DNA of 62,991 bases, filler included, from Collodictyon triciliatum (Eukaryota), in NCBI GenBank assembly GCA_043381765.1. It is 14 parts of 14 records of this genome, joined end to end, with 100 filler letters (N's around TTAATTAATTAA, not from the genome) between each part and the next. Parts side by side here need not be neighbours in the genome. Positions count along the whole stretch, not along the records: positions 49,584 to 53,986 come from JBHJMP010006138.1; 13 more parts are not named here. The stretch is one strand, 5' to 3'. Of this stretch, positions 17,947-62,200 are shown piece by piece (position 1 is the first letter of the stretch; each line of letters begins with the position of its first letter). A program made the translations under genes and the position numbers. The notes below the pieces were generated by a model. That model was given only the letters and a program-made list of their open reading frames with translations, made no database searches and had not been told where the DNA came from.

Positions 17947-18399
17947 NNNNNNNNNNNNNNNNNNNNNNNNNNNNNNNNNNNNNNNNNNNNTTAATTAATT
18001 AANNNNNNNNNNNNNNNNNNNNNNNNNNNNNNNNNNNNNNNNNNNNACGCGTATGACAGACGTCGGAGTACGTGCTGGAGAAATGTGGTGTGTATGTGTC
18101 ACAAAGTTTGGAAGAACCCGTTCGACCCCCCGTTGCTTCGCAGCGTCCCCTTTCTACCAACCCCCAAGTTGCCTATTGATTGAGTAGACTCCTTGTTTTG
18201 TTATTGCGCCACTTAATCGGCCACCAAAACTTGCGTCTCCCTTTTCATTCTTGCTTCCCGCACATCCAATGGAAAAACACAAGCCGCGACCCGTCAAATG
18301 TTTTGCATGTTGCAACTAGTTTTTCTGGTTCCAAAGCTGGCGCGGAAAAACCCCGAGTTTCACGTAAGTCTAGGAAGACCCGTGAAAGAGAGCCGCCTG

Positions 18400-19474
18400 C
18401 AAGTCCGTCTGAGCGGATAGTATTTTTGCACGGGGTCGAGCAAGTCGTTTATAACAAGAACAAGGCCCGCAGACTCACCGATGCGCTCACCCGACAGCGA
18501 AGGCCTTTGCCTGATAGCCTTCCCCACTGCAGAAAACGCCCGAAAGCTTCTGGAGCTGAAGCAGGTAAGTTTGATCGATATTACGATCAGCTTCAGCAGA
18601 GGTAAACCAACAGAGACCTTGTTGATGCTCTACCAACTACCGCTGGACGTGTGGCCACAACTCCTTCATGAGGAGCTGAAGCCGTTCAGACCGACCCACG
18701 TGGACATAAAAAAGGACAAATGCTTCTTCACAGACACGGCCGTGGTGAAGGTTCTTTGTCACAAGAACCAGCTCCCTGCAAAGTTTACGGTCATGTATAA
18801 GAAGTGTCCAAAGCGCATCCTCAAAGAGCGTCCGCCAGCTGCGAACAACGAACGACAAGTAAAAGCCCCGCAAAAGATTACACCCGCCAAGCAGACAAGC
18901 AGCAACAGAGACAAGGAAGCCAAGGCCAGGCAACAACTGAGTCCGCAAGACTCACAGCAGATACGCGCATACAGCGACAGCGACGATGACGTGGAGGAAA
19001 TCTCGGTTCCTCTTCAGAATCCTCGCACTCGAGTCCTCCACCGCCAACACCGGACAAGCCCGCACATCGCAAGACCCAAGAGCAGCGCATCTCCAAACCC
19101 CGAAAGAAATCCCTTTTAAACTACCCATTCAGACTGACATGAATATGGTTAACATAGGAGGCATCAAGGCAGTCTTCGTTACTTATCCGAAAGGATACTC
19201 CAAAGCGAAGGCAACACAAGAACCAGCGCCCACCAAAGATAGTCCGTTTACCCTGCCCCAGCCCGTCGCACCGAGAACCAAGGAGCAAGAGCAAACACCA
19301 CAAGTCGAATCCAAGCTTGGAACTTCACACACTAAAGACAGTCCGAGCAAGCAGGAGCGTATGTTTCTAAAACCACAAACGCGTATCCATACTCCGGTTA
19401 AGCAAAGTCCACTGCCGGCTACGCATGGTTCCGAAACCAGGGGACGGTCAAGCGCCACTTCCGATAATGCCTGA
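18400..19474 (+). mobile_element. L1/Tx1-like ORF1 (gag/RRM-type) relic, frameshifted
   Basis: Intronless, higher GC. LIAFPTAENARKLL..I.F..TLLMLYQLPLDV..LLHEELKPF pattern followed by a P/Q/S/T-rich disordered tail, split over three overlapping frames. Confidence 0.55.
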
Positions 19475-19686
19475 CAAACAACGATGTATCGCTTTTTGTC
19501 TGAATCTTTCAGCAAAAAACGTAAGGAAAGTGACCCGTTGTCTCTTTAAAAGACTCATAGTGTGTAATGAAATAGGATGCAAACCTTGTCTGAGATAGGT
19601 GGTTGAAAGGACTCGTCGGAACCGATTTTCGAAGTAACTGCCATGTGCGTACTTTCTTAAAATAATTATTTAAACTTCTATGATAA

Positions 19687-21097
19687 TTTTTTTATTCTTC
19701 CTTTCAACTTTGTGCAGGATAGTGAAGGTGTTGGATTTGGTTCTCTAGCCATCGTTTGCATGGGCGCTACTTGGTGACATTGAGGTGGCAGAGAAGTAGT
19801 CGGTAATCAGGAATTGCATCCTGCGGTTCGGCCTGTAGCCTGGGTCTTCTGCCTGCATGAGGGGGACAAGGCGAGGTTTAATATCCTTCTCAGCCTCTTT
19901 CCACATGTCTCTTCTCACAGGGTCTGATTAGTAGAGAACGTGCAGGTGGCGAAAGAGGCTGTTGAGGAAAGAGATTTGTATGATGTCATCCAGTCTATTA
20001 CAGGAATGGGTGGCTGGTTGTTGAGTCTTGCTTTGCGTGAGTGCATGCGCGCCATCCACATAGTCCATAGCAAATGGCCTCGCGTCACTGCCCAGAATGT
20101 TTTTGCCTCTGGACGCAGCTGTTGCAGAGGCCCAAATATCGCCTGTATTGGGCCAACAGCCGCAGCCGTCTTGAGTGTCAGTCGAAGAATCTCGCCGGCT
20201 GTTTCGCGCAGGTTTTGAGGGAAGGGACATTGCACAAACGTGTGCTCCATGGGTTCATCACGGTTGGTGCAAAGTGTACATTGTTGGGAGTCTTTGCCAG
20301 CTTTTGCCGCGCGTGTGCCTATCCATAGCTCCCTATTGGTGATATTAAGCATTAGAGCGATGATTTGGAAGGACTTGCGGTGTTCGTGCTTGTCTCCAGC
20401 TTGCGGTGAGCGGGGTGTGGGTGATGCCCAGTGTTTCTCCCCATCGTTGATGTTTTGACTTTTTGTAGGGAGTTGGCGGCGATATATTGTATCGAAAGAA
20501 TTCGGAGTAGGCCATAGCCATAGATAACTGAGTATACTGGGCACCGTTAGACGAGCGTTCGTTCTTGAGGCGGAAAAAGAATGGCGACGGGATGTCGTAT
20601 GAGATTGGTCAGCCTGAGCGCCATTTTCCTTTGTTATTCAGGACGGCTGTGGTTGGCTGTGCATCTTGTGTGCGGAATGCGGTGGAGCCTGGCGTTGTGA
20701 TGTATGAGCCGTCTTCTTTGAATGAGATTTCTCTGACGGTGGCCGCGTTGCCTTCGTGAACCTGTTTGGTGATGCAGAAGCCTTTCTGGTTGTCCCAGCA
20801 TATTTGTCTTGCTGCTGATGGCTCGTTTAGGGGTATTGTCATTTCGTAGTGATTATACAGAATCTGCCAACGCGAGAGCAAAGGCATTGGTGCGTTTGGA
20901 GGTGGTCGTGTGATTGTTCTTTGTTTCAACTGTGTTTTGAAGTCTCCACACAGTTTTGTGATGAGTTTCTAGATCACATTTTGCCAAAACCCTTTCGGCT
21001 GCATGAACATGTCCGTCCACCACTTCATGGTCAGTGATATACATGCGGGTTTGGGTGTGATGAGTCCAACACCTAAAACCCCCTTTGAGAAAGAGAG
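19687..21097 (-). mobile_element. 5'-truncated L1/Tx1-like LINE (ORF2 C-terminus, 3' UTR, A-tail) with probable TSD
   Basis: KGVLGVGL..MKWW..FWQNV thumb region; CTLC..EPMEHTFVQC zinc-binding motif; FW..LLWTMWMAR; internal stops. Ends GCACAAAGTTGAAAGGAAGAAT(A)7. TATGATAATTT is repeated at 19679-19689 and 21103-21113. Confidence 0.85.
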
Positions 21098-21611
21098 TTC
21101 AGTATGATAATTTAAATCAGCATTAGCAGCACAGAGGAAGAAAAAAATCCGAATTCCTTGGTATTTACGGAGGTAAAAATAGATTCCATCTGAAAAGAGA
21201 AATATAATGCACGGCTTATAATAATTTATAGTAAACTAATACATAGATATTTTAAAAAACCATTAATATCAGATTAAATATTTGAGATTTAATTTTGATA
21301 TTCAGTGACACAGGATGACATAATTCTTCAATTCAGAATCTTGAGTGAAGCGGCAGAAAGAAAGCAAATCAAGATCTTCAAAAAACATAAGAGAATATAA
21401 CATTCAAATAAATACTTCAATAAATTTTAGAAAAGGTCATTTATATTTGGAAGCAACTAAGTGCTTCAATATGTAAAAATTACATAAATTATTTACCAAA
21501 ATAATTCAATGGAACTCCATTAAGTCACAAAAAATCTTCTTCATATGACTGGGACGTGTATTCTATACATAATTCACCATAAAAGATGCCAAACGAATAT
21601 TCATAATAGAT

Positions 21612-21630
21612 CTTTAAATCGAATAAAGGA
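21612..21630 (+). mobile_element. Micro-retroposon family A, older copy
   Basis: CTTTAAATCGAATAAAGGA (1 mismatch to consensus). Flanks TATTCATAATAGAT / TATTCAGTACTGAT may be a decayed TSD. Confidence 0.5.
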
Positions 21631-22721: not shown

Positions 22722-24858
22722 CGCCAGTCGAGGTCGTCCATTCCGATGCGGGAATCTCTGCCACATCTTTATCGGCATGTCCATCACGGTCACTATAAGA
22801 CGCAGTCAGTCTTATCGTCTTATCATCAGCGCCTGCAGATTAATGATGTACACTTTACAACACTCCTCTTTTCCCTTTTTATTTCTTTTTTTTTTTAAAA
22901 AAAAAAATTACACTTGTCTTAGCTTTGAGAAATACATGCACTTTTAGGGAATTTTTCTCCTTTTTTTTTTTTTACCGGAGATGGGTTTGATTAAATCGTT
23001 AAAGGTAAAGATTCAGTGAATAAACAATAATAATAAAAACTATAAGAAAGAGTGAAAAAAAAATAATGAAAGAAAAAAAGCTGAAGGCTGAACCTGTTGG
23101 TTGCTCTTTTTCTTTCAAGCGAACGAGGATGACTCCGCCTTTGGTTCCTTCCTCACTTGTGCGACTCGGAAAGAGCGTGTTGACCTGTCCATACGCAGAA
23201 CGTTTTAAGATTTTTTAAAAATCAAATGGAAATAAACACAAATTACATATAAGATGTCGCCTTTGGCTTGAGCTGCTTCGGGACTTCCATAAACCTAATA
23301 TCATTTTTTGGTCAAATTAAATACACTATATCTCCATGTGTTTTCAAATTCTAGACAACAGCAAGCAAGGGTTTCTTGAATCACATGTTCACAGACTGCC
23401 GAGCCAGGTATTATCGCCAAACCCACACACCTTTTCGATTTCGTAGAATGTGCTCTCGAATTTCAGACTTAGGTCAAACACAAGAGGAGTCACAATCAGG
23501 TCAAATTCCTGGCAAAGATGAAGCGTTCGTCAGTATACTTTATATATATATATGTCCTCACGCATATTGATGTATCGGAGGGAAGTATTCCTGTAGTAAA
23601 CAGCGACAACCTCATTGATTTTTTCGTTGAATTCTTTTCCATTGTGTACTGAAAAATAGTTTGCACCTCTTACTTTGGTGATGGCTATGTAAAAGTTTGT
23701 GTATAATTGATTATTATTTTTTTACTGGAAAATAAAAAAAAATGCGTGTCATTGCATAATAAAAATTGTTCATATTGCACATCAAACCCTCATACATTCA
23801 ATCAACTCTGATTGAAAGTCCAGTCCAATCCCCACAAACGTGGAATAGATTTTATTGGCAGCTGCTTCCTAAAACAAACAAATACTTCAATCCGCAGCTT
23901 TGCCTAGTCTTTTGCTTTGCATCCCCGGAAATTAAATCACATAATATGATATATTTTCTCAGCAATTAAATAGTTGCATGAAAGAAGTTCACAAAGTCCC
24001 ACTTTTGTGATTTGAAGGAGTTCGTTTTCATCGATGTTGCCAGTGTTGGGCATGGCATCCGTCAAAAATATGATTCTGTTGTCGTATCCCTCCAGTATGC
24101 CCAACTCTTTGAAATTGGCAACAGCCATACGAAGTCCAGCCTCCATGTTTGTCGCTTCACAAAACGAATGACATCATTAATATGAATACAGCGTTCTAAT
24201 ATTTTTTCATCATCTTGAAAGCTTCGTATTTGCTTGCAGATTACGAATGTACACCAAATATACTGTGAATGAGTGAATCCTGCCATAGCTCTCTATCCTG
24301 TTAGCTTTCATTTCAGACAGCGCAGAGATTCAGGTGTGATATGGTATATTCGTATACATGTATATATGTACCTCCGGCTGGTTGAACTTCCAAAAGATGT
24401 TTCTTTATACTCGCCATATCAGTCGTTCCGACAGTGCGAAAAGGCTTCATTTGTGGGGATAATAAAAAAAAAATATGAATATATATATATACCGTTATAA
24501 TCAATTGTGGATACGGGTTGGTGGTCGAATTACCTTGGCCAAGTAGGCGTCGTGGTCAAATAGGACTATTCCGAGTCTGTCTTCCGCGTTGAGATGGTCG
24601 ACCATACTTGCTAAGCTCTATGAATAAAAGTGAGGGCTAGCGAACCAAATCCAAAATCTCCATCATCTTGCACAAATTCAAAGGAAGAATATGATAAAGT
24701 GAATAAAAGTAAGGAAAAGTTGGGATGATGAGGCGCTGGCGAGAATCAGACAGTAGTCTTGAAATCAAGGTGAAAATAAAAGAGAGAGAGAAGGAGCAAA
24801 CCTTGGTTGCAAGCTTCAATTTTGTCTCTGTCTCGCTCTCCTCCCCTCTTTTTTTTAA

Positions 24859-45079: not shown

Positions 45080-48000
45080 TCTGGAGAAATTAGTATTGTC
45101 CTGCGCTGATGATAGAGACCCAGTGCCTCACGATTTGCTCTCCAACTTATACTCTGAGCTTGGAGAAGACGACTTTACTCACAGTGTTTTGCAGAGGAGG
45201 TCGTTCGGAGAAGAGACACGTGTGGCATTATCGCTGCAACAATATGGATACTGGCAGAAATCTCAAGAACTTATCTTAAATATAATGATAAAAAATGCAC
45301 ATTCTGCAACTGCAGAAAACCGAAATCATGAGATTTCTTTATGGCAAGACAAGTGGTTGACATGTTGCCGTCACCTCAATCAATGGGATACCTTGGTGGA
45401 CTTTTCAAAATCAACCAATATACCTGAGCTGTTGCTCGAGTCATCATGGAAGCAAGGAGAATGGAGTACGATGAAAGAAGCAGTATCATTTAACAGTCCA
45501 GATACTATTCAATCTTACAAGAATATAATGTATCAGCTCTATGTTCTAGTTCAAGGAAGAAAATTACCAGAATTTAAAGAAATGTTGTCCAAATGCTTTA
45601 ATATGTTATTGATTCAATGGCAAAATCATCCATTTACTCCTTGTCATGCGCACAGCAATCTACTCCCAGTGTTTCAGCAAATGATTGAACTTCAAGAATC
45701 TTTGACTATTATACAAGAGTTTGAGAACTCGGAACGAGCTCATGTAAGCTGATTCAAATTCAGAAAAAATGCTTTAAAACAAACCCTAGATTATTTTTTT
45801 ATCTACTGGTGTATCCCATTACGTGTTAATTTTTTTCATGTTACGTTCTTTTACGTTCTTTTACATTCTTTTACATTCTTTTACATTCTTTTACATTCTT
45901 TTACATTCTTTTACATTCTTTTACATTCTTTTACATTCTTTTACATTCTTTTACATTCTCTGTCGTTTCCCTTTTACGTTCTCTGTAATTTTTCTTCCTT
46001 TTCTTTTCCTTCTTTCCTGTCAAGGATTTTTAATGTTATCAATATTTTTCTATTCTTAAAACCTGAACAAGACTTCTAATATTAAACCCCCAAGGCTTTA
46101 CGGCTCATTCGTGGCATTCTCTCTGCATGGAGAGAAAGGTTGCCCAATGCATGGGAAGACATGACCGTATGGAGCGATCTCCTGCAGTGGAGGCATCATC
46201 TATTTTCTGTTATCACATCGTCGCTACAGGCATCTGACCCGACTCCATCTTCTTCTTTCATGGGATATCACGAAACCGCATGGACTATCAACAAATATTC
46301 CAGAATAGCTAGAAAACATAGACTTGTTGATGTATCCCTCTCTGAACTTAACAGGATATACAGCTTGCCTAATATCGAGATATCGGATGCATTCGTCAAG
46401 CTAAAAGAACAAGTAAAGTGTTATTTTCAAGTGCCTGGTGCATACAAGACTGGTTTGGACACAATCAACAGCACAAACTTGGATTATTTTACAAAACTGC
46501 AAAAAGCAGAATTCTTTCGACTTAAGGCTGAATTTCAGCACTTGCTTGGTCAGAACGAGGAGGCTAACAACTCTTTTACAACATCGATGCTGACAGATGA
46601 TAATTTGTCCAGTGGATGGATTGCATGGGGTCTTTTCTGTGACCAAATTTTCCAACAAGACCTCAAGAAGCTCCATTGGGCAGAGTATGCATTAACATGT
46701 TTCCTGTCCGCGGCTCGAACAAAGTCAGACCGCGCCCGAAGATTGCTCTCTAGAGTGTTGGTACTCCTCACGTATGACGATGAGTCAGGTATGCTCTCGA
46801 AGAACTTTGAAACAAACGCAGAGAACATCGTTCCGTGGGTCTGGTTGTCTCATGTTCCATATATGTTGAATGCTGTCCAACATAGCGACAATTCAGTGTT
46901 CAAAAAGATATTGACAAAACTCTGTAGTGTGTATCACCAGGTGATTTTTATTCTATTTTATTAATCCATTTTCATTATATTTTCATTCTATTTTTATTCA
47001 TCTCAATCACTCTTAAGATATTATCGAATGAAACAACGTAATGATATTCTAATTGAAAATAAGACACACATATGGTCAAAAGGAATTCAATATATTCTTA
47101 TTTTTATTTATTCATTTCAACATTATTTAGAGCATGTTTTACCATATTCGCACCTTTCTTCTTCGACAAAGGCGGGTTGCGATGGAGCATATACCCTATC
47201 AGTTACTTTCGTCTTTGCCTCACAAATCAATGAGCCCATGGCAACTAAGTTTGCAATCAACTGCCCATCCTCTATCTGCTCCGGTAATTCAGATCAATAT
47301 TTGTTTTTTGTTTTTTTCCTTAGCTTTGTAGTTCAATTAAGCTGCAACCTTCAGCTTATCTTTTTTAAAAAAATTCTTTTTATTAATATTAATATCTTTA
47401 CTCTTCGATATAGGGAATGAACCAGTCCAGCGCGAATGCTCAATGTGCGTAATCAATATTTTCATTACGTGGTTTCGTTGTTGTTTTTTTTAAGAAAAAT
47501 TAAATGTATCTATTAGGCTTGGCGTTTGCCGAATCCCTAATGACTAACCTAAGGAAATCCAACGTTACTCTTGTTAATGAGCTCGAGCACATTGTTGAGG
47601 AAATATGTAATCGACTGCGACCAAGTCCAGAAGATGAGATGATTTCTCAATTGAATAACTTGTTAATACACTGTATTAAAGTATGATAACAAATGACTTT
47701 CTCCTTTGTTATTTTGCAAATTGATATAAAGATAAAATAAAAACACAGCTTATTTTGATTAGAGTTATATTTATTTTATCTTTTACATCATAATTTATCA
47801 TGAAAAGTAAACTATTATTCCCTATAAGACCCCCTTTAAGACGATTGTGGACAAGCAACCCTTGACTGGCTCACTACCAGAACACTTGGACCATATCTGG
47901 TCTTTATTCTTTCAATTCGATGATGGGCACCCGAGAAGTGAAGTGGTATGATATTATAATTTGTTAATTCGATCGATTTTGTTTTTGCTATTTTTAAATT

Positions 48001-49729: not shown

Positions 49730-52700
49730 AACTTGATATTTTGCTGAACTTCTCATCAGTTTTCACACTTTCACGGAAGATATATTTCACATCAGCAACG
49801 ATAATCAAGGCTCCAGAAATAGTTTGGTTTGAGGTAAATTGGTTTGCTTGAAGTTTTTGAACCAATTTCTCGTCAAGGGTAGATTTTAAAGCCTTTTGAT
49901 TTCTTTCATTCTCATCAATCAGTGTCCCAACAGCCTAGGTATTTGGGGCATGATACCATTTTCAGACTTTTCAAAATAAATGTGAATCGAAAATACCTCT
50001 GTCAGCCGGGCTTGGTCAAGGAATTCCTTCCGACACGTATAATCTCTTGATACAGCGTATAAATAAAATAGAAAGGACGGAAACACGGTAAAAGAGATGA
50101 TGAAGTACGATATCCCATAGCTCTCATATCTATAAATAAAGCAGAAAGTGAGGATATATTAAAGAGTAGTTACCAAAGATTGGTACATACTACTCACATT
50201 TGATTATGATACATAAATATCGTGAGCAAAGATATTCCCATCCATAGAGCCAGTTGGCGTGCAAAATGAACTGTAGTAACAGTTATGGATACTAGAAAGA
50301 ATATTGCCACTTTGTATATCTCAGAATAGATTATCGTAAAACTATACCAATTCAGAATACAACCGTAAACGGAATGATTGAATATTAGTATTATTCTACC
50401 GAGGGAAAAAATTCCATAGATGGAGCCCATGATTATCGGTATATTCCATTCATCCAGCATTCGACCCATTATTTGTTTATAATCCAACAGGTAATACGTG
50501 GTCGAGAGCAAAAAAAGGATTGGAAGAATAACAAAAAATCGAAGTGCCATGATAATGGTCTTATTATCGCTAAATGTTTGACAATTCATTAAAATTTGGT
50601 AATCCACGAGCCCATATAACAAGTTGCAAATAGTAAAGACAAAATTTTGGAGCCTGTAAAATATTATTTTGCATTAGCTCAGATGAGATTACTATAAAAA
50701 ATTTTCTATGAGAATAATCTAATGCACAAAATTGAAAGGAAGAATAAAAAAAATGAGAATAATCTAATTACGAAATTATTCTTTTGTTCCGATAGGTTTT
50801 GATGCTATCTATAAAATCAAGTTCTTGTTTCTTGTCTAGAAAACGTAAATCCCCAAAATATCTCGCGTAAGCTCTCTGACCAAGGCTATAATGAAAATAA
50901 TCTTGCCATTTTTCAAGTCCCTTGTGCATCAAAATGAAAATAAGTATGTCATAAAAGAGAAAATAATTGAACAAAACAATTGCAAATTTTAATTATTTCA
51001 CCTCTTCATCGCACAGCCCAAATATATTCTCTTTTGAACCCCTGACTTGATTATTTAGCTTTTCTTGATGACTGTGTTTCGAACTTTTTTCGACATATTT
51101 GGAATAAATTTGGCGGAGAAAAAACATCTCCTGAAAATGGTTTCGAAGGGGCAGTTTTTCAAATAAAGCAATCCCATCCTGGTTAAGAGATTTACTAGTT
51201 TTTAAATGCACTTCAAAATCTCTGCAGATGCTTGTTTAAATATATGTTAAAATCCAAATGTGTAACCTTAATTGCTATTTTATCGGCCCAAAGGTTTCTA
51301 GTCTTTTTATCTAGAACTATTGTTCCCTCATCAGCCACAGCTAAACAATCCATGGCAGATGTCAATCCTGAGCATTAGATACTTTTGATGAATACTAAAT
51401 CAAAATATCGCCTTTAAGTTTTTCTTACCTTGACCAATTATATCAAAGTTGAATTTGGAACATTCTATCATCCCTCCCTCCACAAATCCAGTCCCTATAC
51501 CGATTTTTATATAGATCTATCGTTTGAGATGTTTTTAGTAAGAAAATTGTCGCATTTTTGAATTGTAGATTTCAGTGTCCAATTTTTAACAGATGTTTTA
51601 TGCGATATGAACCAGACGTGCTTAGGCCTCATTTCACAAAAATCTTTTAACATGTCGCATGCAGATTTTAGAATGTCTTTATTATCTTCCCCGAATAGGC
51701 CAGAGACAAACTTTAAGTGTAATTTTACTTATTGAATACAATTGGTGTATATAATATTTTTTAATTCTCTACAACGCCTGTGGGCAGTTCGCATCATATA
51801 AAGTCTTTATATGACTCACCGTAACACATAAACCTATGTTTTTAAAAACAATCAGTCAATGCTATCTAACGAATCCCAATCGAAAAATACAATTGAAATG
51901 AAACTGCATCACCTGCTGATTTCACTCTATGGATAAGACTCCTATAATTAAAAGTTTTTTGTTATAAATAAATATGGAAATACTCTGCAACGTTTTATAT
52001 CCCTCTAATTATCGGTCACCTTTCAGAAATGCATATTATCAACCTAAAATAGTGCCATCAAAAACCAATTAATCAATTATCACCGAAAACATAGAGAAAG
52101 TGACAAAACTTGAAAATTTAAACAAAGGAGGTCGAACCCGTAAGCCATCTCAATTTCGGCGACAATGTCGCCAAAGGCTTGGGTATTCTGCATACGCAAA
52201 TTAAATTCTACACACATCACATTCACTTCTGGCATCAGAAATGACATGTGGACTCCCACACCACGATCGACTACAATATTCATAACTGGTCTGCATTATT
52301 TAATCAGTTAATTTTTGTTGCTAGTGTGTCAATAGTGCTAATACTCGCGCCTGTAAAGGGAAAAGCGATGCAATTAGGAGAGTATTTTCTAGAAACTTAC
52401 CTAGGGTATATATTTGACAGCAAAAAATTAGTTCGCTTCTTAATCCTTGTTACTCGCTTCTTTATCGATTGAAGTTTTTTTCTAAAGTAAAATGAGCTAT
52501 AGAGGAATTGGTAAATCTAAATAGTAGTAAATTTGAAAGCAATAATACGATGTACATTTTGATCAAATAATGCACTTTTTTCTTTGGACTTCCACCAGCC
52601 TGAGGATTGTGATGCTAAGAATGGATGAAAGAAGTAGCGGGGTCATACACCGAAACAGAATCACGCTGCTCAGTGAAGTAACATAAGAAATCACTGAAAA

Positions 52701-53745
52701 TAAAAATATGTTGGCGAATGCCGTGATTAACAACTGTGTCGTATATTCACCCCGAAGCACAACAGTGAAAGCCTATGAAAATAAAATTTTTATCATTCAA
52801 ACTTTTTCAAGGAGTAAAAGACTTTTGTTGAGGAATTTGAGCACGTGCTTACCAATATGATTATATCGATTTCAGTAAGTATTCTTTGGGGCTCAATTAA
52901 TGATGGGATTGTTATTGCGATGCAAAGCGCAAAGTAATAAAGACTGACAGTTCGATAATAAGCCCTAAAATTAAATAAATTCAGAGACTATAACAATAAA
53001 CCCTCTTGATATTATACTGACCTCACGAATGACTCAAAATTACCCCCTTTGAGCTTTTGTTTGATATAATAGCAACATAAGCATACAGAAGCGCAGCAAA
53101 TCGACGTCAAACCATAGCTCAACATCCATACCAAAGAGTACCCTAAACTAAATTAAAAATATTCGACTATAAATTAGATTATTGCTTTTGTTTGAGGCAT
53201 TTCCTATAACCTTGTGAGAAGTCAGTGTTGCATTGAAGCTGACTTAGCGACTTACGATGAATATACTTGAAAGATTGAATACAATGTCCCCAGGAAACTA
53301 AATCTCGTCAAAAATGGCAATCCATAAAGCATTGACTCCATTTTATATTCTCTTTCAAGATTCGTATCTTTAAACCTAATATTGCCATATTTCACTATTG
53401 TCATGAAGATTAAACTTATTCTCAGCCGCATTTTTCTAGAGTATATTACCTAAGTTTCATATGGTCAATGTCGCCAGAGGGTATGGTGCTGTCTTCCTCG
53501 ATATTTTCAATGATTTCACGGAGCAAATATGATTTTATGAAAGGGGCACCAACCCATTCTTCAAATAAACGCCCCAAATTGGCCATTTGAGGTTCCTTTA
53601 TTTGTTCTGAGGCTTGAATAGTATGATTTACTTCTCTAACTTTCATGTGCAAGTATTGACCTTTGCGCTCTACCGTGGCATACCTGGTCGATTGCTGAGA
53701 AGTTGCGCTCCCTGCAAAATTGTCAGTGTTCCAATTCTCTTCCAT
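49730..53745 (-). CDS. Membrane class III nucleotide cyclase-like protein (TM block - cyclase - TM block - cyclase start), divergent, 3' truncated
   Basis: Reconstructed exons: TM block; NFLLSNIYPR|PVM; EVNVMCVEF; HRVKSAGDA; FVSGL..SACDML; IYIKIGIGTGFVEGGMIECSKFNFDIIGQG|LTSAMDCL..GTIVLDKKT; second TM block; KALKSTLDEKLVQKL..ALIIVADV. Confidence 0.68.
50708..50768 (+). mobile_element. 29-nt 3' tip of the 19687-21097 LINE family (family B) with perfect 16-bp TSD, intronic
   Basis: ATGAGAATAATCTAAT [GCACAAAATTGAAAGGAAGAATAAAAAAA] ATGAGAATAATCTAAT; insert differs from the LINE terminus by one base. Confidence 0.9.
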
Positions 53746-54129: not shown

Positions 54130-57100
54130 TCTTTGGATAAAGTGGGAGACCTGCTGGTTGGATTTTTCTTGGAGTCTTTTGAGAATTCGTTCTTGTTGTC
54201 TGTTCTGAATGTGCGTCTTGGAAAGCATCAGACAGAAGGTATGCAATTTATTATATTTTTGATGAATTTTTGTCATGAATATGAGTTATATATGGATACG
54301 TTCAATAATTTATCAATTTACAGATGCGAAGACTGCTGATTACTTGAATCTTGGTCGTGTCTACAAGAACCTCCAAAAGTAAAAAAATAAAAAAACGTTA
54401 ATGATTGTTAAATAGGACATGACATGATGTTTATAATGCCAACTTTCTAAAATAAAAATTAAAAAGCTGGGCTGAGTCCATGGTCTACTACAAGAAATGT
54501 CTCAATTCAGTCGAGAAAAATGAAGATGATTCCCTGCGTATTGCTACCATTCATGAAGAAATGGGAATCATCTATCAGCAACAGGATAAGTAAGGATGGC
54601 TTTCAACTGTAAAATAAATTATGAATAATGTTTAAAAAAGGAATTATTCTTATTTGCTTATTAAATAGGATCGATGAAGCTCTTGATGAATACAAGAAAT
54701 CACTGGACTTTAGAGTCAAACAACTGGGTGAGAATGACTTGCAAGTGGCCCAATCACATGACCGCTTCGGAGACATCTACGTGAAGCAGTCAAAGTAATA
54801 ATTGATCATTTATAGACGTTAACATTCTAACCTTTTTTTTATTTTTGTAAATATATTTGCTGATCAATTTTTTATGATAGGAATGAGCAAGCTCTAGATG
54901 AATACACAAAGGCCATGGAAATCCGCCAAAAGAAAGTCGGAAACGAGCATCCTCTTGTCGCAACATCGTACCAGAACTATGGCCATGTCTCTCTTGCTGG
55001 GAAAAAGTAGCACATATTCATTCGATTAAAGACAGTTTTTAATCTACTTATAATTTGAAAATATTAATATAATTGAATCATCAAGGTATGAAGAGTCTAT
55101 TGAAAACTACGAGAAGGCGAAATCAATCCTTGAAAAATCGCTGGGAGCTAAGCATGCATCTGTTGCCTCGACAATCCAGTTTATTGCAAACGTTCATCTT
55201 GCCAGTGGAAAGTTTGGATTTCTAAACTACAGATATTTTCATAAAACAATTATTATTCAATTTTTGCAAAATATATTTGGCTTCATATATTTCATTGTAT
55301 GGACTCTATTTGGGGTTAAAATTATGCATCATATAATCCTAACAAAATAAATATCAAAACTATCGTCTTATATAGGAAAACTGAGGCCTTATCCTCACTT
55401 AAGCAATCGCTGGATATTTTCATGTCTGCCCTGGGTGAAAATCATCCCAATGTTGTGGCCTGCTATGAAATGATTGGAGACATCAGCCATGATTTGAAGG
55501 AGTATCTCTTTTTATTAATTATTATTACATATTTAATTGAAAACAATAATTTATTTACTCTTATTATCTTAGCTTTAAGGGTGCTCTGGAGGCGTATACA
55601 AAGACGCAGGATATTCGCGTGAGAACACTGGGCGAAAGACATGCTGATTATACAACTGCTCTGGAGAATGTTGGCCGAACAAACTTTGAGCTTCAAAGGT
55701 AGATTTTTCTATTTGTTAAAAATTCGAATATTTTGATTAAAAGCAGTAAAAAAAACAATAAATATTGAATAATCAATAATATGCATGCATTTAGATTGGA
55801 CCAAGTAGTTGAATACTTCCAGAAGGCAGATGCGTTCAGAAAGGAGACCAAGACCATCATGTCAATGAAAGACACCCATCAGATTGACAACATTATCCGC
55901 CTCATGAAAGACAAGAAACAGCATGAATTAGTCATTCAGCTGTACAAAACAGCTGCTGTTAGACATGGTGAAAAGTCATCCTATGAAAATTGGGACTGCT
56001 GGGTGGCTTGTGAAAATGCGCACCAATACTGCAAAGAGAACAAGCTGTATGAAAGTGGCGTGGCATTCTGGGCTGAGATGAGAGACAGATTCGCAGACAA
56101 ATTCGGATGGATTCACCCCAGAACATTAAATTCTTGCGAATACTTGTCCGTTCATTCAAAAGAAATCGAAATCAACAAAGAGCCTGTTGAGTTTGCAAGA
56201 GTCAAGGAATTCATCAGTGAAACTCTTGATGATGCAAAACTGGATGAGGAATGGAATCGTGAGCAAATCATTGCGTCATTATTCAGAATTGTCTACATGT
56301 CAAAGACTGATGAGAGCAAATCAAAGGCTGCATCTGATGCAATCACACTTTTGAATTTCATGAATGTTTCGTTCGGTGGGATGGATTTATCAAACATCAA
56401 AATTCCAAATGCAAATCTCAGTAATTCAATTCTTGATGGTGCAAACTTTGCTGGTGCAAACTTTGCTGGTGCCAACTTGGATGGTGTTGATTTCACAAAT
56501 TCGATGCTTGGTGATTGTGTTTTTGATAATGCGCATATGAATAATGTGAAATTCGGAATTCCTCATGATAAATTAGAAGGCCATACAAATAATGTCAATA
56601 GTGTTTGCAGCATTCAAGGACCGAATGGTGAAAAGTGGCTGGCTTCTGGAAGTAGCGATAAAACAATACGTATTTGGGATGTAGCCACAGGAAACCAAAT
56701 CAAAACATTAGAAGGACATACAGAAGCTGTCAATAGTGTTTGCAGTATTCAAGGACCGAATGGTGGACATTGGCTGGCTTCTGGAAGTAGAGATAAAACA
56801 ATACGTATTTGGGATGTAGCCACAGGAAACCAAATCAAAACATTAGAAGGTCATACAGAATGGGTCTGGTGTGTTTGCAGTATTCAAGGGCCGAATGGTG
56901 AAAATTGGCTGGCTTCTGGAAGTAGGGATAAAACAATATGTATTTGGGATGTAGCCACTGGAAATCAAATCAAAACATTAGAAGGTCATGCATATTTTGT
57001 ATTGAGTGTTTGCAGCATTCAAGGACTGAATGGAGAACAATGGCTGGCTTCTGGAAGTCAAGATAGAACAATACGTGTTTGGGATGTAGTGACAGGAAAC

Positions 57101-58051
57101 CAAATCAATACATTAGAAGGGCATACAGGCTTTGTCATGAGTGTTTACAGTATTCAAGGACCGAATGGTGAAAGTTGGTTGGCTTCTGGAAGTGAAGATA
57201 AAACTATACGTATTTGGGATGTAGCCTCAGGAAACCAAATCAAAAAATTAGAAGGACATACAGGAGCTGTCTGGAGTGTTTGCAGCATTCAAGGACCGAA
57301 TGGCGAAAAGTGGCTGGCTTCTGGAAGTGATGATAAGACAATACGTATTTGGGATATAGTGACAGGAAACCAAATCAAGACATTGGAAGGACATACAGAA
57401 TCTGTCATGAGTGTTTGCAGCATTAAAGGACTGAATGGTGAAAATTGGCTGGCTTCTGGAAGTGATGATAAGACAATACGTATTTGGGATGTATCCTCAG
57501 GAAATCAAATCAAAATATTGGAAGGTCATACAAATGATGTCAATAGTGTTTGCAGCATTCAAGGACCGAATGGCGAAAACTGGTTGGCTTCTGGGAGTGA
57601 TGATAAAACTATACGTATTTGGGATGTAACCACAGGAAACCAAACACACAGCCTGCAAAAGTCAGAAGTGACCTACACCCAAGGAAAATACCTCGTCAAG
57701 AAAGAAAAGCCAGACGAAGTCATCGCAGTATTCAACAGAACAAGCGATGCGATGAACATGATTGACACCAACAGAATACAAGATGCAAGGACAGTCCAGA
57801 TTATCGGCCCAAGAAAGCTGCAAGGTGGAAACATCCAAATCAAAAATGTCACGGGATTAAGTCGATTCAACAAATCCCTTCAACTTTCTATCGGTGCTGT
57901 TTCCTATGATGCGGACTTTGCTGCCTATTGTGAGCAGGGTAAGTTCACCAAGTTCCAGGCTCGGATGATGGCTGAGTGCTATGAGAATGGATGGGGTGTG
58001 GAGAAGGACACTGAGAAGGCGGCTGATTGGAGACAAAAAGCCACAGCTTAA
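54130..58051 (+). CDS. TPR (kinesin-light-chain type) - pentapeptide - 8x WD40 - Sel1-like protein (5' truncated)
   Basis: 42-aa TPR exons (..LGENHPNVVACY..IG..), then one 55795-58051 exon with AASDAITLL..DLSNIKIPNANLS..ANFAGANLD, eight 45-aa GH..WD repeats and CYENGWGVEKDTEKAADW. Confidence 0.92.
56573..57652 (+). repeat. Eight 135-bp coding tandem repeats (high-identity WD40)
   Basis: Units start at 56573, 56708, 56843 ... 57518 with exact 135-nt spacing. Confidence 0.95.
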
Positions 58052-59283: not shown

Positions 59284-62200
59284 ATGCAGAGGATTGCTCT
59301 CTTGCAAGCAGGCAGCCGAGCAACGACCACGCGCTTGCTCTTGCTCTTGCTCTTGTTCGCTCTTTCGCTCCTTGTTGCGGAGGCGTCTGTGACTCAGCAG
59401 AGTGCCTTTACTCCAGAGGCAGCAGCTTCGTACGACCTCTTCGGCGCAAGTGTTGATTTGTCCAGCTCTTTTGCCTTTGTGAGCGCACCCGATCGCTCCG
59501 TCGGTTCTGCAGAGCGCCAAGGAGCCGTGCAGATTTTCCAACGAAGTGAAGCCCTTTGAGCCGCGACGTCTCTTTTGACAGCCCAGGATGGCCAGGCGTT
59601 CGATGGCTTTGGGCATATAGTTTGTCTCACAGAACTGCGAGCAGCTGTTGGAGCTCCACATCATGATGGAGGAAGCCCGCCACTCCAAGATAGCGGTGCT
59701 GTGTTTGTATACACACTGAGTGCCGGGTCTTGGGGTCTTTCAACAAAGCTTCTGGCCTCCGATGCCGCCTCCAACGACGGTTTCGGCTCATCTCTTGCCT
59801 TGAATGACGAGATGCTTTTGGTCTCTGCGCCTCAGAAAAACGTCGGTTATTTGAGAGGTGTTGGAGCTGTCTATGTTTTTTCGCTTGGCGGCTCTGCTGT
59901 TTGGTCTCAAGTGGACACACTCAGTCCAGTTGATGTCCTCCCGGGAGACTTTTTCGGAGTCTCTGTCGCTTTGGGAGGAGCTAGTAGCACGACTTTTGCT
60001 GTTGGTGCCTGCGGGCAGGGCGATTACGGAGTTGTTTATATCTTCACAAGACAGTCGACAGTAGGCATGCATTTGTTTTCTCAGCAGCAGAAAGTCATCC
60101 CGGCTGGCGTTTCTAAGGGTGGTCGCTTCGGTTCTTCTCTTGCCATGTCCGGTTCTTATATCTTAGTCGGGTCACCACTTGACACAGTGAATGCAAAGTC
60201 TCAAGCAGGTTCCGTGTCAGTTTATACGCTGAATGGGTCTGTATGGAGCTTACAGCAAATACTCGCTGCCCCCGATGCAGCCAGCGGAGATAATTTCGGA
60301 GTTTCTGTTTCCTTAAGCCCAGGAACTGCTATTGCCCTCATCGGTAGCAAATATGCGGATATCGGATCTCAAACGAACCAAGGCGCATCATACTTGTTCA
60401 CACGGGCACATTCTACGTGGCAAATGGATTCGAAAGTGACATCTAACAATGGGGAATCGAATGACGAGTTTTCATCAGTTGCATTGACAGAGTATCATGC
60501 ACTCGTGGGCGCACCTCGGAAGACCCTGTCAGGTGTGTCAACACTCACTAATGCCGGTTCAGCATATGCTTTCTCTGTCTCTGTTAGCCAACAAGGTTTT
60601 TTTTTTTTAAAAAAAAAGGTTTTAAACATGGGTATCAATATAACATACCATACTATGAAAGACCTCTAAGACTGGTGAGGAAAATGCCTCAGAATCTTTT
60701 AAATTTTACATAAAACAGGTTTCACTTCCACATTCTCCAACAGTCAGTCCCCATCGTCCTCCAATAGCCAGTCTCCATCGTCCTCCAACAGCCAATCTCT
60801 GTCATTCTCCAACAGTCAATCTCTGTCATTTTCCAATAGCCAGTCTCCATCGTCCTCCAACAGCCAATCTCTGTCATTCTCCAACAGTCGATCTCTGTCA
60901 TTTTCCAACAGCCAGTCTCCATCGTCCTCCAACAGCCAATCCTCCTTATCATCCGATACTCAATCACAGACAAGATCTGCCGCTATCATGTCCGTCTATG
61001 CAGACAATAAGTCTAAATCTGAACATTTAGGATATCAAGTAGCTGTCAGAAATGGGATTGCAATCATATCTGTACCTGTGTGTGTAAATCCCTCTACAGA
61101 GAAAACATGCGATGGAGGTCACTTTTTGATTTACAAAAAGAATCCAACAGGCTGGATTTTACACCGCAAGGTGCGAAGTCCTTTTCGAAATAGAGATAAT
61201 AAGTTTGGATGGACTATGGAACTGAACGACAATTACCTTATCGTTTCATCCCCAGACTCAAAATTTAGAAGCGTAGAAGTTGGTTCAGTCGTATTCTACA
61301 CATGGAGCACAATTGCGGATTCCTTTGTGAAAGACTCTGTTATTAATTTTCGGAAAATGAAACCCAAGTACAACTTAGGAAGCTCTATGTCCAACTTTGT
61401 CAATACGACAGTTGTAGGAATGCCAGAATATGATGCATCCTCTGATGCCGAAAATTCTGGTGGTGTTCATGTCTACAAAAAGATTGAAGACAAAAGATGG
61501 GGGAAAAGAGTTACCATCACTGCGCAAAGTCCCGTCACTAATGGCAAATTTGGGCACTCTGTGTCAATGCACGGTAGCTTAAGATTTGCTGCATCCAACT
61601 TCCCCTATGATGGAAGTGCACACGCGGTCTTTATTTTCGACTATTCCAGTTCAAAATGGTCACTCCGGCAAACGATATCAAGCGGTGGAAAGCTAGGATT
61701 TGGATGGAGAATTCGTTTTTTCGAGGGCGTGTTGTATGTTTCTGCTATCGATGATAGCGTCGATGAGTCCTATGCGGGGTCAATATCCACCTATGAGCTG
61801 AGCCAAGGTGAAGAATACACATATAATTCTGATATCAAGCCGAACGATATCATCCCTGGAAAACACTTTGGATACAGTTTCAGCCAATCTGAAGATGGAA
61901 GTAGACTCGTTGTCGGCGCAAATCCGTGCCAGCAAGGACAATCATGCGGCATAAAGGGTATGGACTTAATTTACAATCATGATAAGCTTAGTTCACTTAA
62001 TTGCACATATTAATTTATTTTAAAGAAAAAAGAGCAAATTTTAACTTTTTTTTTTTAAAAAAAAAATAATCGAAAAAAAATACACCATACCATAAGGCTC
62101 CATTTACATCTTTACGAGAGATGATAATCGATGGATAGAGTGTTACAGCGCAGATTCGCCGGTCTTGGACGGCTCAGATGGGTTCGGTTTTGATGTGGCC

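Follow-up and report, generated by a model that had tools for sequence, protein, structure and literature searches.

A 29-nt LINE stub in the genome of Collodictyon triciliatum and extreme 5' truncation in two sister LINE families

In this work we have investigated a 29-nt insertion at 50708-50768 of a Collodictyon triciliatum sequence (GCA_043381765.1) and the LINE families to which it and similar insertions belong. The sequence, referred to below as the window, is the whole stretch of 62,991 nucleotides that was analysed; it consists of 14 contigs of about 4.4 kb with N spacers, from an assembly of 75 Mb in 14,576 contigs. The insertion is a dead, 5'-truncated tail of an L1-type LINE, here named family B, and as a single event it is ordinary; that it originated by truncated TPRT is very probable. 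On the genome scale the pattern is an extreme variant of known 5' truncation, with most copies ending within 60 nt, far below the hundreds of bases in human L1, and one family (A) stopping at a single base in about three cases out of ten. We consider truncated TPRT with frequent early abort to be the best explanation of these stubs, with a probability of roughly 55%.

Results

The 29-nt insertion

The insertion and its flanks are composed as follows.

50708-50723, plus strand: left TSD, 16 bp, sharing its final T with the LINE as 1 nt of microhomology
50724-50745, plus strand: majority-allele tip of the family B 3' UTR, comprising the final 22 nt of the LINE, from BLAST and the allele listing
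50746-50752, plus strand: A7 tail (A8 counting the first TSD base)
50753-50768, plus strand: right TSD, 16 bp, the same as the left one

The two repeats, 50708-50723 and 50753-50768, are exact 16-mers (ATGAGAATAATCTAAT), and the 29 nt between them (50724-50752) are made up of 22 LINE bases and A7, the tail being ambiguous between A7 and A8 because the TSD begins with A. In a BLAST comparison the insert matched 19687-19716 on the opposite strand at 29 of 30 positions (E 1.4e-9), base 30 of the match being the 1-nt microhomology with the final T of the left TSD. The repeat comparison and BLAST agree with the sequence-only reading, which had described a perfect TSD around 22 LINE nucleotides and an A-tail with one mismatch. 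As a chance control we used 100 Markov-simulated windows; neither the tip with at most one mismatch nor any 16-bp direct repeat within 100 nt appeared in any of them (0/100 for each). The insert carries the majority allele of the tip, and the G allele of the LINE copy in the window was present in 2 of 100 tips among the matches listed. When the empty allele was sought in three public runs, from nine with small shares, the site 50708-50768 was bridged in none of the three.

The same reading had taken the motif for the true 3' end of the LINE and had named beforehand the finding that would speak against this. We searched with the last 114 nt of the LINE, scored 40 of 555 candidates and took 30 loci, one of which was the window copy itself. 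All 29 other loci, which are the best-scoring copies, end at the motif, followed by an A-rich tail and then by unrelated flanks.

The 1.4-kb LINE copy in the window

A longer copy of family B is present elsewhere in the window.

19679-19689, plus strand: TSD (11 bp) at the 3' end of the 1.4-kb LINE
19690-21102, minus strand: family B copy, 5'-truncated and decayed, with the end of ORF2 including zf-RVT, a short 3' UTR and an A tail
21103-21113, plus strand: TSD (11 bp) at the 5' end of the 1.4-kb LINE

A LINE had been placed at 19687-21097; the element is indeed there, but its own 11-bp TSDs move the limits to 19690-21102 and take in three A's of its tail. The copy is about 92% identical to other long family B copies, is devoid of EN and RT, and contains stops and frameshifts. 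Since it is a broken copy with the minority allele, it is not the source itself, and we regard it as a sister copy of the insert and not as its parent. At its 5' joint, 28 nt (21075-21102) found no match in any other family copy fetched and resemble a GGLG-type coding motif; they may derive from a template switch to another RNA. An inverted (twin-priming) origin of these 28 bases was also considered and rejected, with no match in the loci compared.

Family B proteins and classification

The ORF2 of one copy (L266) contains an APE endonuclease (PF03372, E 1.9e-16, residues 6-231), and the RT of family B was recognised as PF00078 (E 8.8e-28) with a YADD motif. A copy on contig C5561 has an ORF2 which begins with the APE endonuclease, with an RT carrying YADD, while a copy on C1491 has an open C-terminal part of 565 aa with zf-RVT (E 4.7e-8, a CCHC zinc knuckle) as the sole Pfam family and no match to RNase H there. 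The best ORF2 copy contains an assembly gap. No open frame was seen upstream of ORF2 in the sole B copy with an intact ORF2 start. The best solved relative of family B in the PDB is human L1 ORF2p (E 7.6e-45), with R2 reaching 1.6e-19 at best, and the nearest of 86 database proteins is 34% identical.

In a quick IQ-TREE analysis of the RT (77 rows; 12 of 89 rows with a short or over-long RT match omitted, and neither human L1 nor a Tx1 reference included), families A and B were sisters (SH-aLRT 100) inside the branch of five plant LINE hits, with the insect hits and four of the five RNase H (PF00075) hits set apart at a support of 100. One match labelled 'Transposon TX1' fell on the A/B side. 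A third LINE family, represented by L269 (C4856, minus strand), has an RT about 33% identical to that of B and groups with A and B in the tree. Judged from its sequence, family B belongs to the L1/Tx1 group, within which a tree built without reference sequences does not separate L1 from Tx1. The Tx1 clade comprises site-specific L1 relatives, and family B resembles them in the domain order and size of ORF2 but differs in that no specific target sequence was found, the flanks being unrelated across 117 and 72 family B sites. The proposal of an L1/Tx1-like source thus holds for the family; it holds neither for the window copy as the source nor for Tx1 in the strict site-specific sense, which is not supported. 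At the nick sites, within AT-rich surroundings, position -1 was a T in 67 of 94 sites of B and 53 of 72 sites of A, and the A at +1 and the lack of A at -1 are biased by the calling of the tail boundary.

A hand count gave at least about 55 of 147 genome-wide RT matches with 80% or higher identity to B, compared with 993 tips. A second B subfamily, which has a C-rich run, TCGG before the tip and an extra A in the tip, made up 21 of the 117 sampled sites and is likewise mostly 21-45 nt long (including L221, L234, L238, L304 and L311). In one case (L268, C9098, about 700-850) a short B tip with an apparent TSD lies inside the endonuclease region of another B copy.

Family A and other stubs in the window

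Five family A tips and one older family B stub were found within the window.

4218-4238, minus strand: family A tip, 16 nt and A5, with no adjoining TSD recognised
10018-10036, minus strand: family A stub, 12 LINE nt and A tail, with an imperfect TSD of about 14 bp
21612-21630, plus strand: decayed family A tip, 18 nt with 1 mismatch and without a clean A tail
24621-24710, plus strand: older family B stub, covering the 3'-terminal 60 nt or so with 84% identity, flanked by direct repeats of 11 bp
25607-25662, minus strand: family A stub, 18 LINE nt and A6, with a perfect 16-bp TSD
34920-34976, minus strand (outer limits approximate): family A stub, 18 LINE nt and A tail, with a TSD of about 16 bp containing one mismatch

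Family A had been attributed to a second LINE family, and this proved correct: the long copies of A possess EN and RT, and their C-terminus is homologous to that of B. Identity between the two families is about 62% in the RT and 36% in the C-terminus of the long A copies. On C2558 the A 3' region is linked to the RT, to the start of EN and to an upstream open frame; in the family A copy L408 an open frame lies upstream of ORF2. Shared tips join six of the 14 window contigs, to which extent they bear out the idea that all come from one genome; they are silent on the other eight. Three of the window contigs were located in the assembly (C6127, C6131 and C6138). A-type and B-type tips directly abut each other at L027, L049 and L303, which suggests that later insertions use A-rich tails as targets.

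Copy numbers and lengths

Exact B tips are numerous genome-wide, with 529 matches to 22 nt and A4 (reversed control 0) and 993 matches to 12 nt and A5 (control 4). For family A, each with A5, we counted 1,700 tips of 11 nt, 1,309 of 16 nt and 292 of 28 nt, the controls being 0. One other public run yielded 7 contigs with the B tip which continue upstream as family B sequence.

A first sample taken from the first-listed contigs contained 117 B sites, obtained with mixed search thresholds of 12 nt and 22 nt, and 105 A sites. As many as 100 of the 117 B sites and 93 of the 105 A sites were no longer than 50 nt. A TSD of 11-23 bp was present at 94 B and 72 A sites, among which the median length was 35 nt for B and 18 nt for A and the median TSD 16.5 and 17 bp, respectively. 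The per-copy A sample comes from the first contigs only and is supported by the whole-genome counts. Our second B sample comprised all 81 genome copies matching the 16-nt tip with A9 and then T, 72 of which were new; their median was 37 nt, with 62 copies up to 50 nt, 69 up to 63 nt and 71 up to 100 nt, a TSD in 58 and a contig end or gap cutting 7. Two of the 81 copies, L341 and L382, share near-identical flanks on two contigs and represent one insertion, in a duplicated segment or in two haplotypes of the assembly, so that the counts include some events that are not independent. The 5' ends of B are all LINE sequence and form a continuum from 13 nt to more than 1.4 kb, and the 22-nt insert at 50708-50768 lies in the lower part of this broad distribution.

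Expressed as a stop rate, family B stopped 67 times over 1,965 nt at risk within 16-63 nt, or 0.034 per nt, and 7 times over 2,179 nt further out (0.0032); family A stopped 92 times over 1,402 nt within 11-45 nt (0.066) and 7 times over 1,327 nt further out (0.0053). In both families the rate drops about tenfold past the first 45-63 nt. This fall is well below the scale of assembly collapse, although collapsed repeats and broken contigs do leave copies longer than about 150 nt under-counted. Tail length showed no correlation with body length in A (rho -0.13, p 0.33) or in B (rho 0.02, p 0.86), so that stops track the position on the RNA more than the total length of the cDNA.

Fixed starts and rejected patterns

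Family A has a sharp peak of stops at 17-19 nt, with 43 in 212 base-steps at risk against 49 in 1,190 elsewhere (p 5.5e-14), and none of 2,000 constant-rate simulations reached it (one gap-side copy left out). Genome-wide, base 18 is the first LINE base in 385 of 1,309 A tips, the base before it being non-LINE, where a constant stop rate would give 89-102. Most base-18 tips in the sample adjoin their TSD, and they are therefore not a variant subfamily.

No single fixed start was seen for B in either the first or the second sample. A 10-nt periodicity suggested by clusters at 22-25, 33 and 42 nt in the first sample failed replication among the 72 copies not sampled before: p was 0.91 at 22-25 nt, 0.08 at 42-45 nt and 0.29 at 42 nt itself (2 stops of 30 at risk). 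The stop at 33 nt alone held, modestly raised (6 of 42, p 0.003), and two polymorphic positions inflate it through chance matches. Two spikes, at 26 and 31 nt, were rejected as artefacts that arose when polymorphic sites and members of the second subfamily were aligned to a single reference copy. Folding of the RNA was no better than that of shuffles (z -1.14, 0.37 and -0.05), with no significant hairpin and no stable structure at the stop sites, and we discarded RNA hairpins as a stop signal.

Discussion

The LINE 3'-end identity, the TSD, the tail, the enzyme domains, the copy numbers and the lengths are all observed, and they can be accommodated in a model of the following kind. The APE endonuclease would nick the AT-rich site TTCT|ATGAG, where the LINE RNA would anneal by its A tail, and the RT would copy the tail and 22-23 nt. 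The other strand would be nicked 16 nt away, the short cDNA would be joined via one microhomology base, and fill-in would produce the TSD. The order of the nicks and the cause of the early stop are what we infer. In the published model of 5' truncation the top strand is nicked while the first strand is being made and synthesis of the second strand begins prematurely (PMC7617806). According to the same source the TSDs of L1 range over 7-20 nt, so the medians of 16.5 (B) and 17 (A) fit TPRT.

As to why the stubs are so short, we give about even odds to early abort. Both sister ORF2 proteins would then be prone to abort during initiation, over the first 20-60 nt, and processive later, with an early switch to second-strand synthesis or joining in the initiation phase. 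The positions at which copies pile up, sharp at 18 nt in A and broad over 16-63 nt in B, would be set by the RNA sequence or by the protein. Microhomology was found at 24 of the 94 junctions of B and 29 of the 72 of A, or at 24 of 51 (B) and 29 of 49 (A) when junctions with extra bases are set aside, compared with about 80% in 5'-truncated human L1 (PMC2912911), and a level this low would rather suit a template jump from the free end of an RNA. In genomic copies, an RT that halts looks the same as one running off the end of a short RNA.

The main rival to early abort, which we find possible though rather unlikely, is that the template was already clipped: LINE RNA would be degraded 5'-to-3', or sliced by host defence, to a 3' piece shielded by the ORF2p and poly(A)-binding protein sitting on it, and ORF2p would copy this stub to its end and then jump to the top strand at the nick. 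In A, the start at 18 nt would in that case be a protein footprint or a cut site, which suits the 385 of 1,309 A tips at exactly base 18 where 89-102 are expected. Many joints are blunt and microhomology is modest, as such run-off would have it, and the TSDs are of full length, a pattern tied in PMC2912911 to full-length and trans-mobilised copies, although this last argument is weak because short TSDs fall below the detection threshold used. The lack of a single start in B, despite an RT about 62% identical, counts against a clipped template. Could the truncation itself be ordinary and smooth, the excess of stubs having arisen later from selection against long copies and from repeat collapse in a fragmented assembly? 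The 14,576 contigs, the long copies often found at contig ends or with gaps and the contig end or gap that cuts 7 of 81 B copies would agree with this, as would the length-dependent selection on LINEs and the many CR1 insertions below 50 bp described in Anolis (PMC5389967). Yet copy number falls at 20-60 nt, far under the length at which repeats collapse, and selection or assembly, which can thin long copies, cannot prefer 18 over 22 nt; we therefore think this account improbable.

Still less probable, and by a wide measure, is an independent micro-SINE which borrowed the LINE tail and spread from its own master copies. Copy number is very high and A has a dominant start, but 18-40 nt is too short for an internal promoter, B subfamily variants are present among the stubs, and the 5' ends of B vary continuously and are always LINE sequence, which largely refutes the idea for B. 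SINEs of the UnaL2/UnaSINE type have LINE tails with stringent stem-loops. Our stubs resemble that type in being short elements with a LINE 3' end, but they differ from it in having no SINE head or promoter, a variable 5' end in B and no significant stem-loop. Chance AT-rich similarity or an assembly artefact is hardly credible at all: the motif is A-rich and the window consists of joined short contigs, but 0 of 100 simulations and 529 exact matches against 0 in the reversed control refute it, and contigs from other public runs carry the tip too, with LINE sequence upstream of it.

Early abort and a clipped template could each provide a molecular ruler that sets stub length in two sister LINEs whose insertions would be chiefly discrete 3' stubs, either an ORF2p checkpoint between initiation and elongation or a footprint left after host RNA decay or slicing. 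We put this forward tentatively and hold it to be doubtful on balance. If it were true, at least 2,700 natural insertions would map the commit/abort step of TPRT at single-base resolution, and the two families, with 18 nt sharp and 16-63 nt broad, would allow tail-swap tests of the cause of 5' truncation.

Compared with known systems, both families share with 5'-truncated human L1 (PMC2912911, PMC7617806) an ORF2 of APE, RT and zinc knuckle, an A tail and a TSD of close to 16 bp. Their 5' ends likewise vary, their targets are apparently AT-rich with T|A at the nick, and microhomology and extra bases are each present to some degree. They are unlike it in that microhomology is below the roughly 80% of human truncated L1, the TT|AAAA preference seems weaker and the tails are short, mostly 5-14 A. 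The 'severely truncated' L1 insertions of tumours average 585 bp (PMC3514663), whereas the medians here are 37 nt (B) and 18 nt (A), and an insertion of poly(T) only is known in NF1 (PMC3219598). Also comparable are the CR1 insertions of Anolis carolinensis, many of them below 50 bp with only the 3' end and with family-specific truncation profiles, but CR1 is of another clade and, in the relevant part of that study, declines smoothly with distance, with no single-base start described (PMC5389967). Anole L1 is similar in either truncating early or tending to finish, but its early phase extends up to 1 kb, here to 60 nt (PMC5389967). Preferred 5' truncation positions in L1-mediated insertions have been reported for human SVA (PMC10681720), but those hotspots are internal, only 'potential' and among 127 copies, whereas about 29% of our A tips of at least 16 nt start at one base, 18 nt from the tail. 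In the literature searched, with subscription papers mostly outside it, we found no description of a genome dominated by 20-50 nt stubs of the L1 group or of a fixed start near 18 nt.

The cause of LINE 5' truncation is still debated (PMC2912911, PMC7617806), and a related pair of families with differing profiles is a natural test system. Stubs of 20-50 nt escape standard repeat annotation and may be overlooked elsewhere, and in this genome they add thousands of small indels, some inside introns.

Host context and other features of the window

The insertion appears to lie within a host intron.

50654-50771, minus strand: predicted host intron (GTAATT...CTAAT...TTTTACAG), read by eye, with the insertion antisense within it

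The predicted intron is 118 nt long, or 73 nt without the insert and the duplication, and the TSD begins four bases in. As read by eye, its removal would join two open frames in phase; the host frames around it gave no significant Pfam match. On the host strand the insert (50714-50752, minus strand) presents a T-rich tract and then TAG, which might act as a cryptic splice acceptor within the predicted intron. Short pieces of 49800-52800 were found at 95-100% identity and low depth in three public runs (two freshwater and one aquaculture metagenome), and the organism or a close strain therefore occurs there.

A separate dispersed repeat occupies 18047-19656 (plus strand), with a diverged copy at 38091-38606 and matches of 74-92% in ten other fetched loci, some of them overlapping; other copies extend past 19656. 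Its open frames at 18421-19119 and 18941-19474 look LINE ORF1-like by eye and had no Pfam match. As the ORF1 of A or B, 18421-19474 was rejected, with no tblastn match upstream of ORF2 in L408, L266 or L409. At 55769-58051 (minus strand) a frame of 760 aa shows, by eye, about eight WD40-like repeats of 135 nt, nearly identical to one another, with pentapeptide-like repeats ahead of them. Ordinary eukaryotic genes were recognised by eye at 8545-8923, 37401-37766, 45080-46964 and 59560-62013 (an alpha-tubulin end, a cyclophilin, a TRRAP-like piece and FG-GAP repeat proteins).
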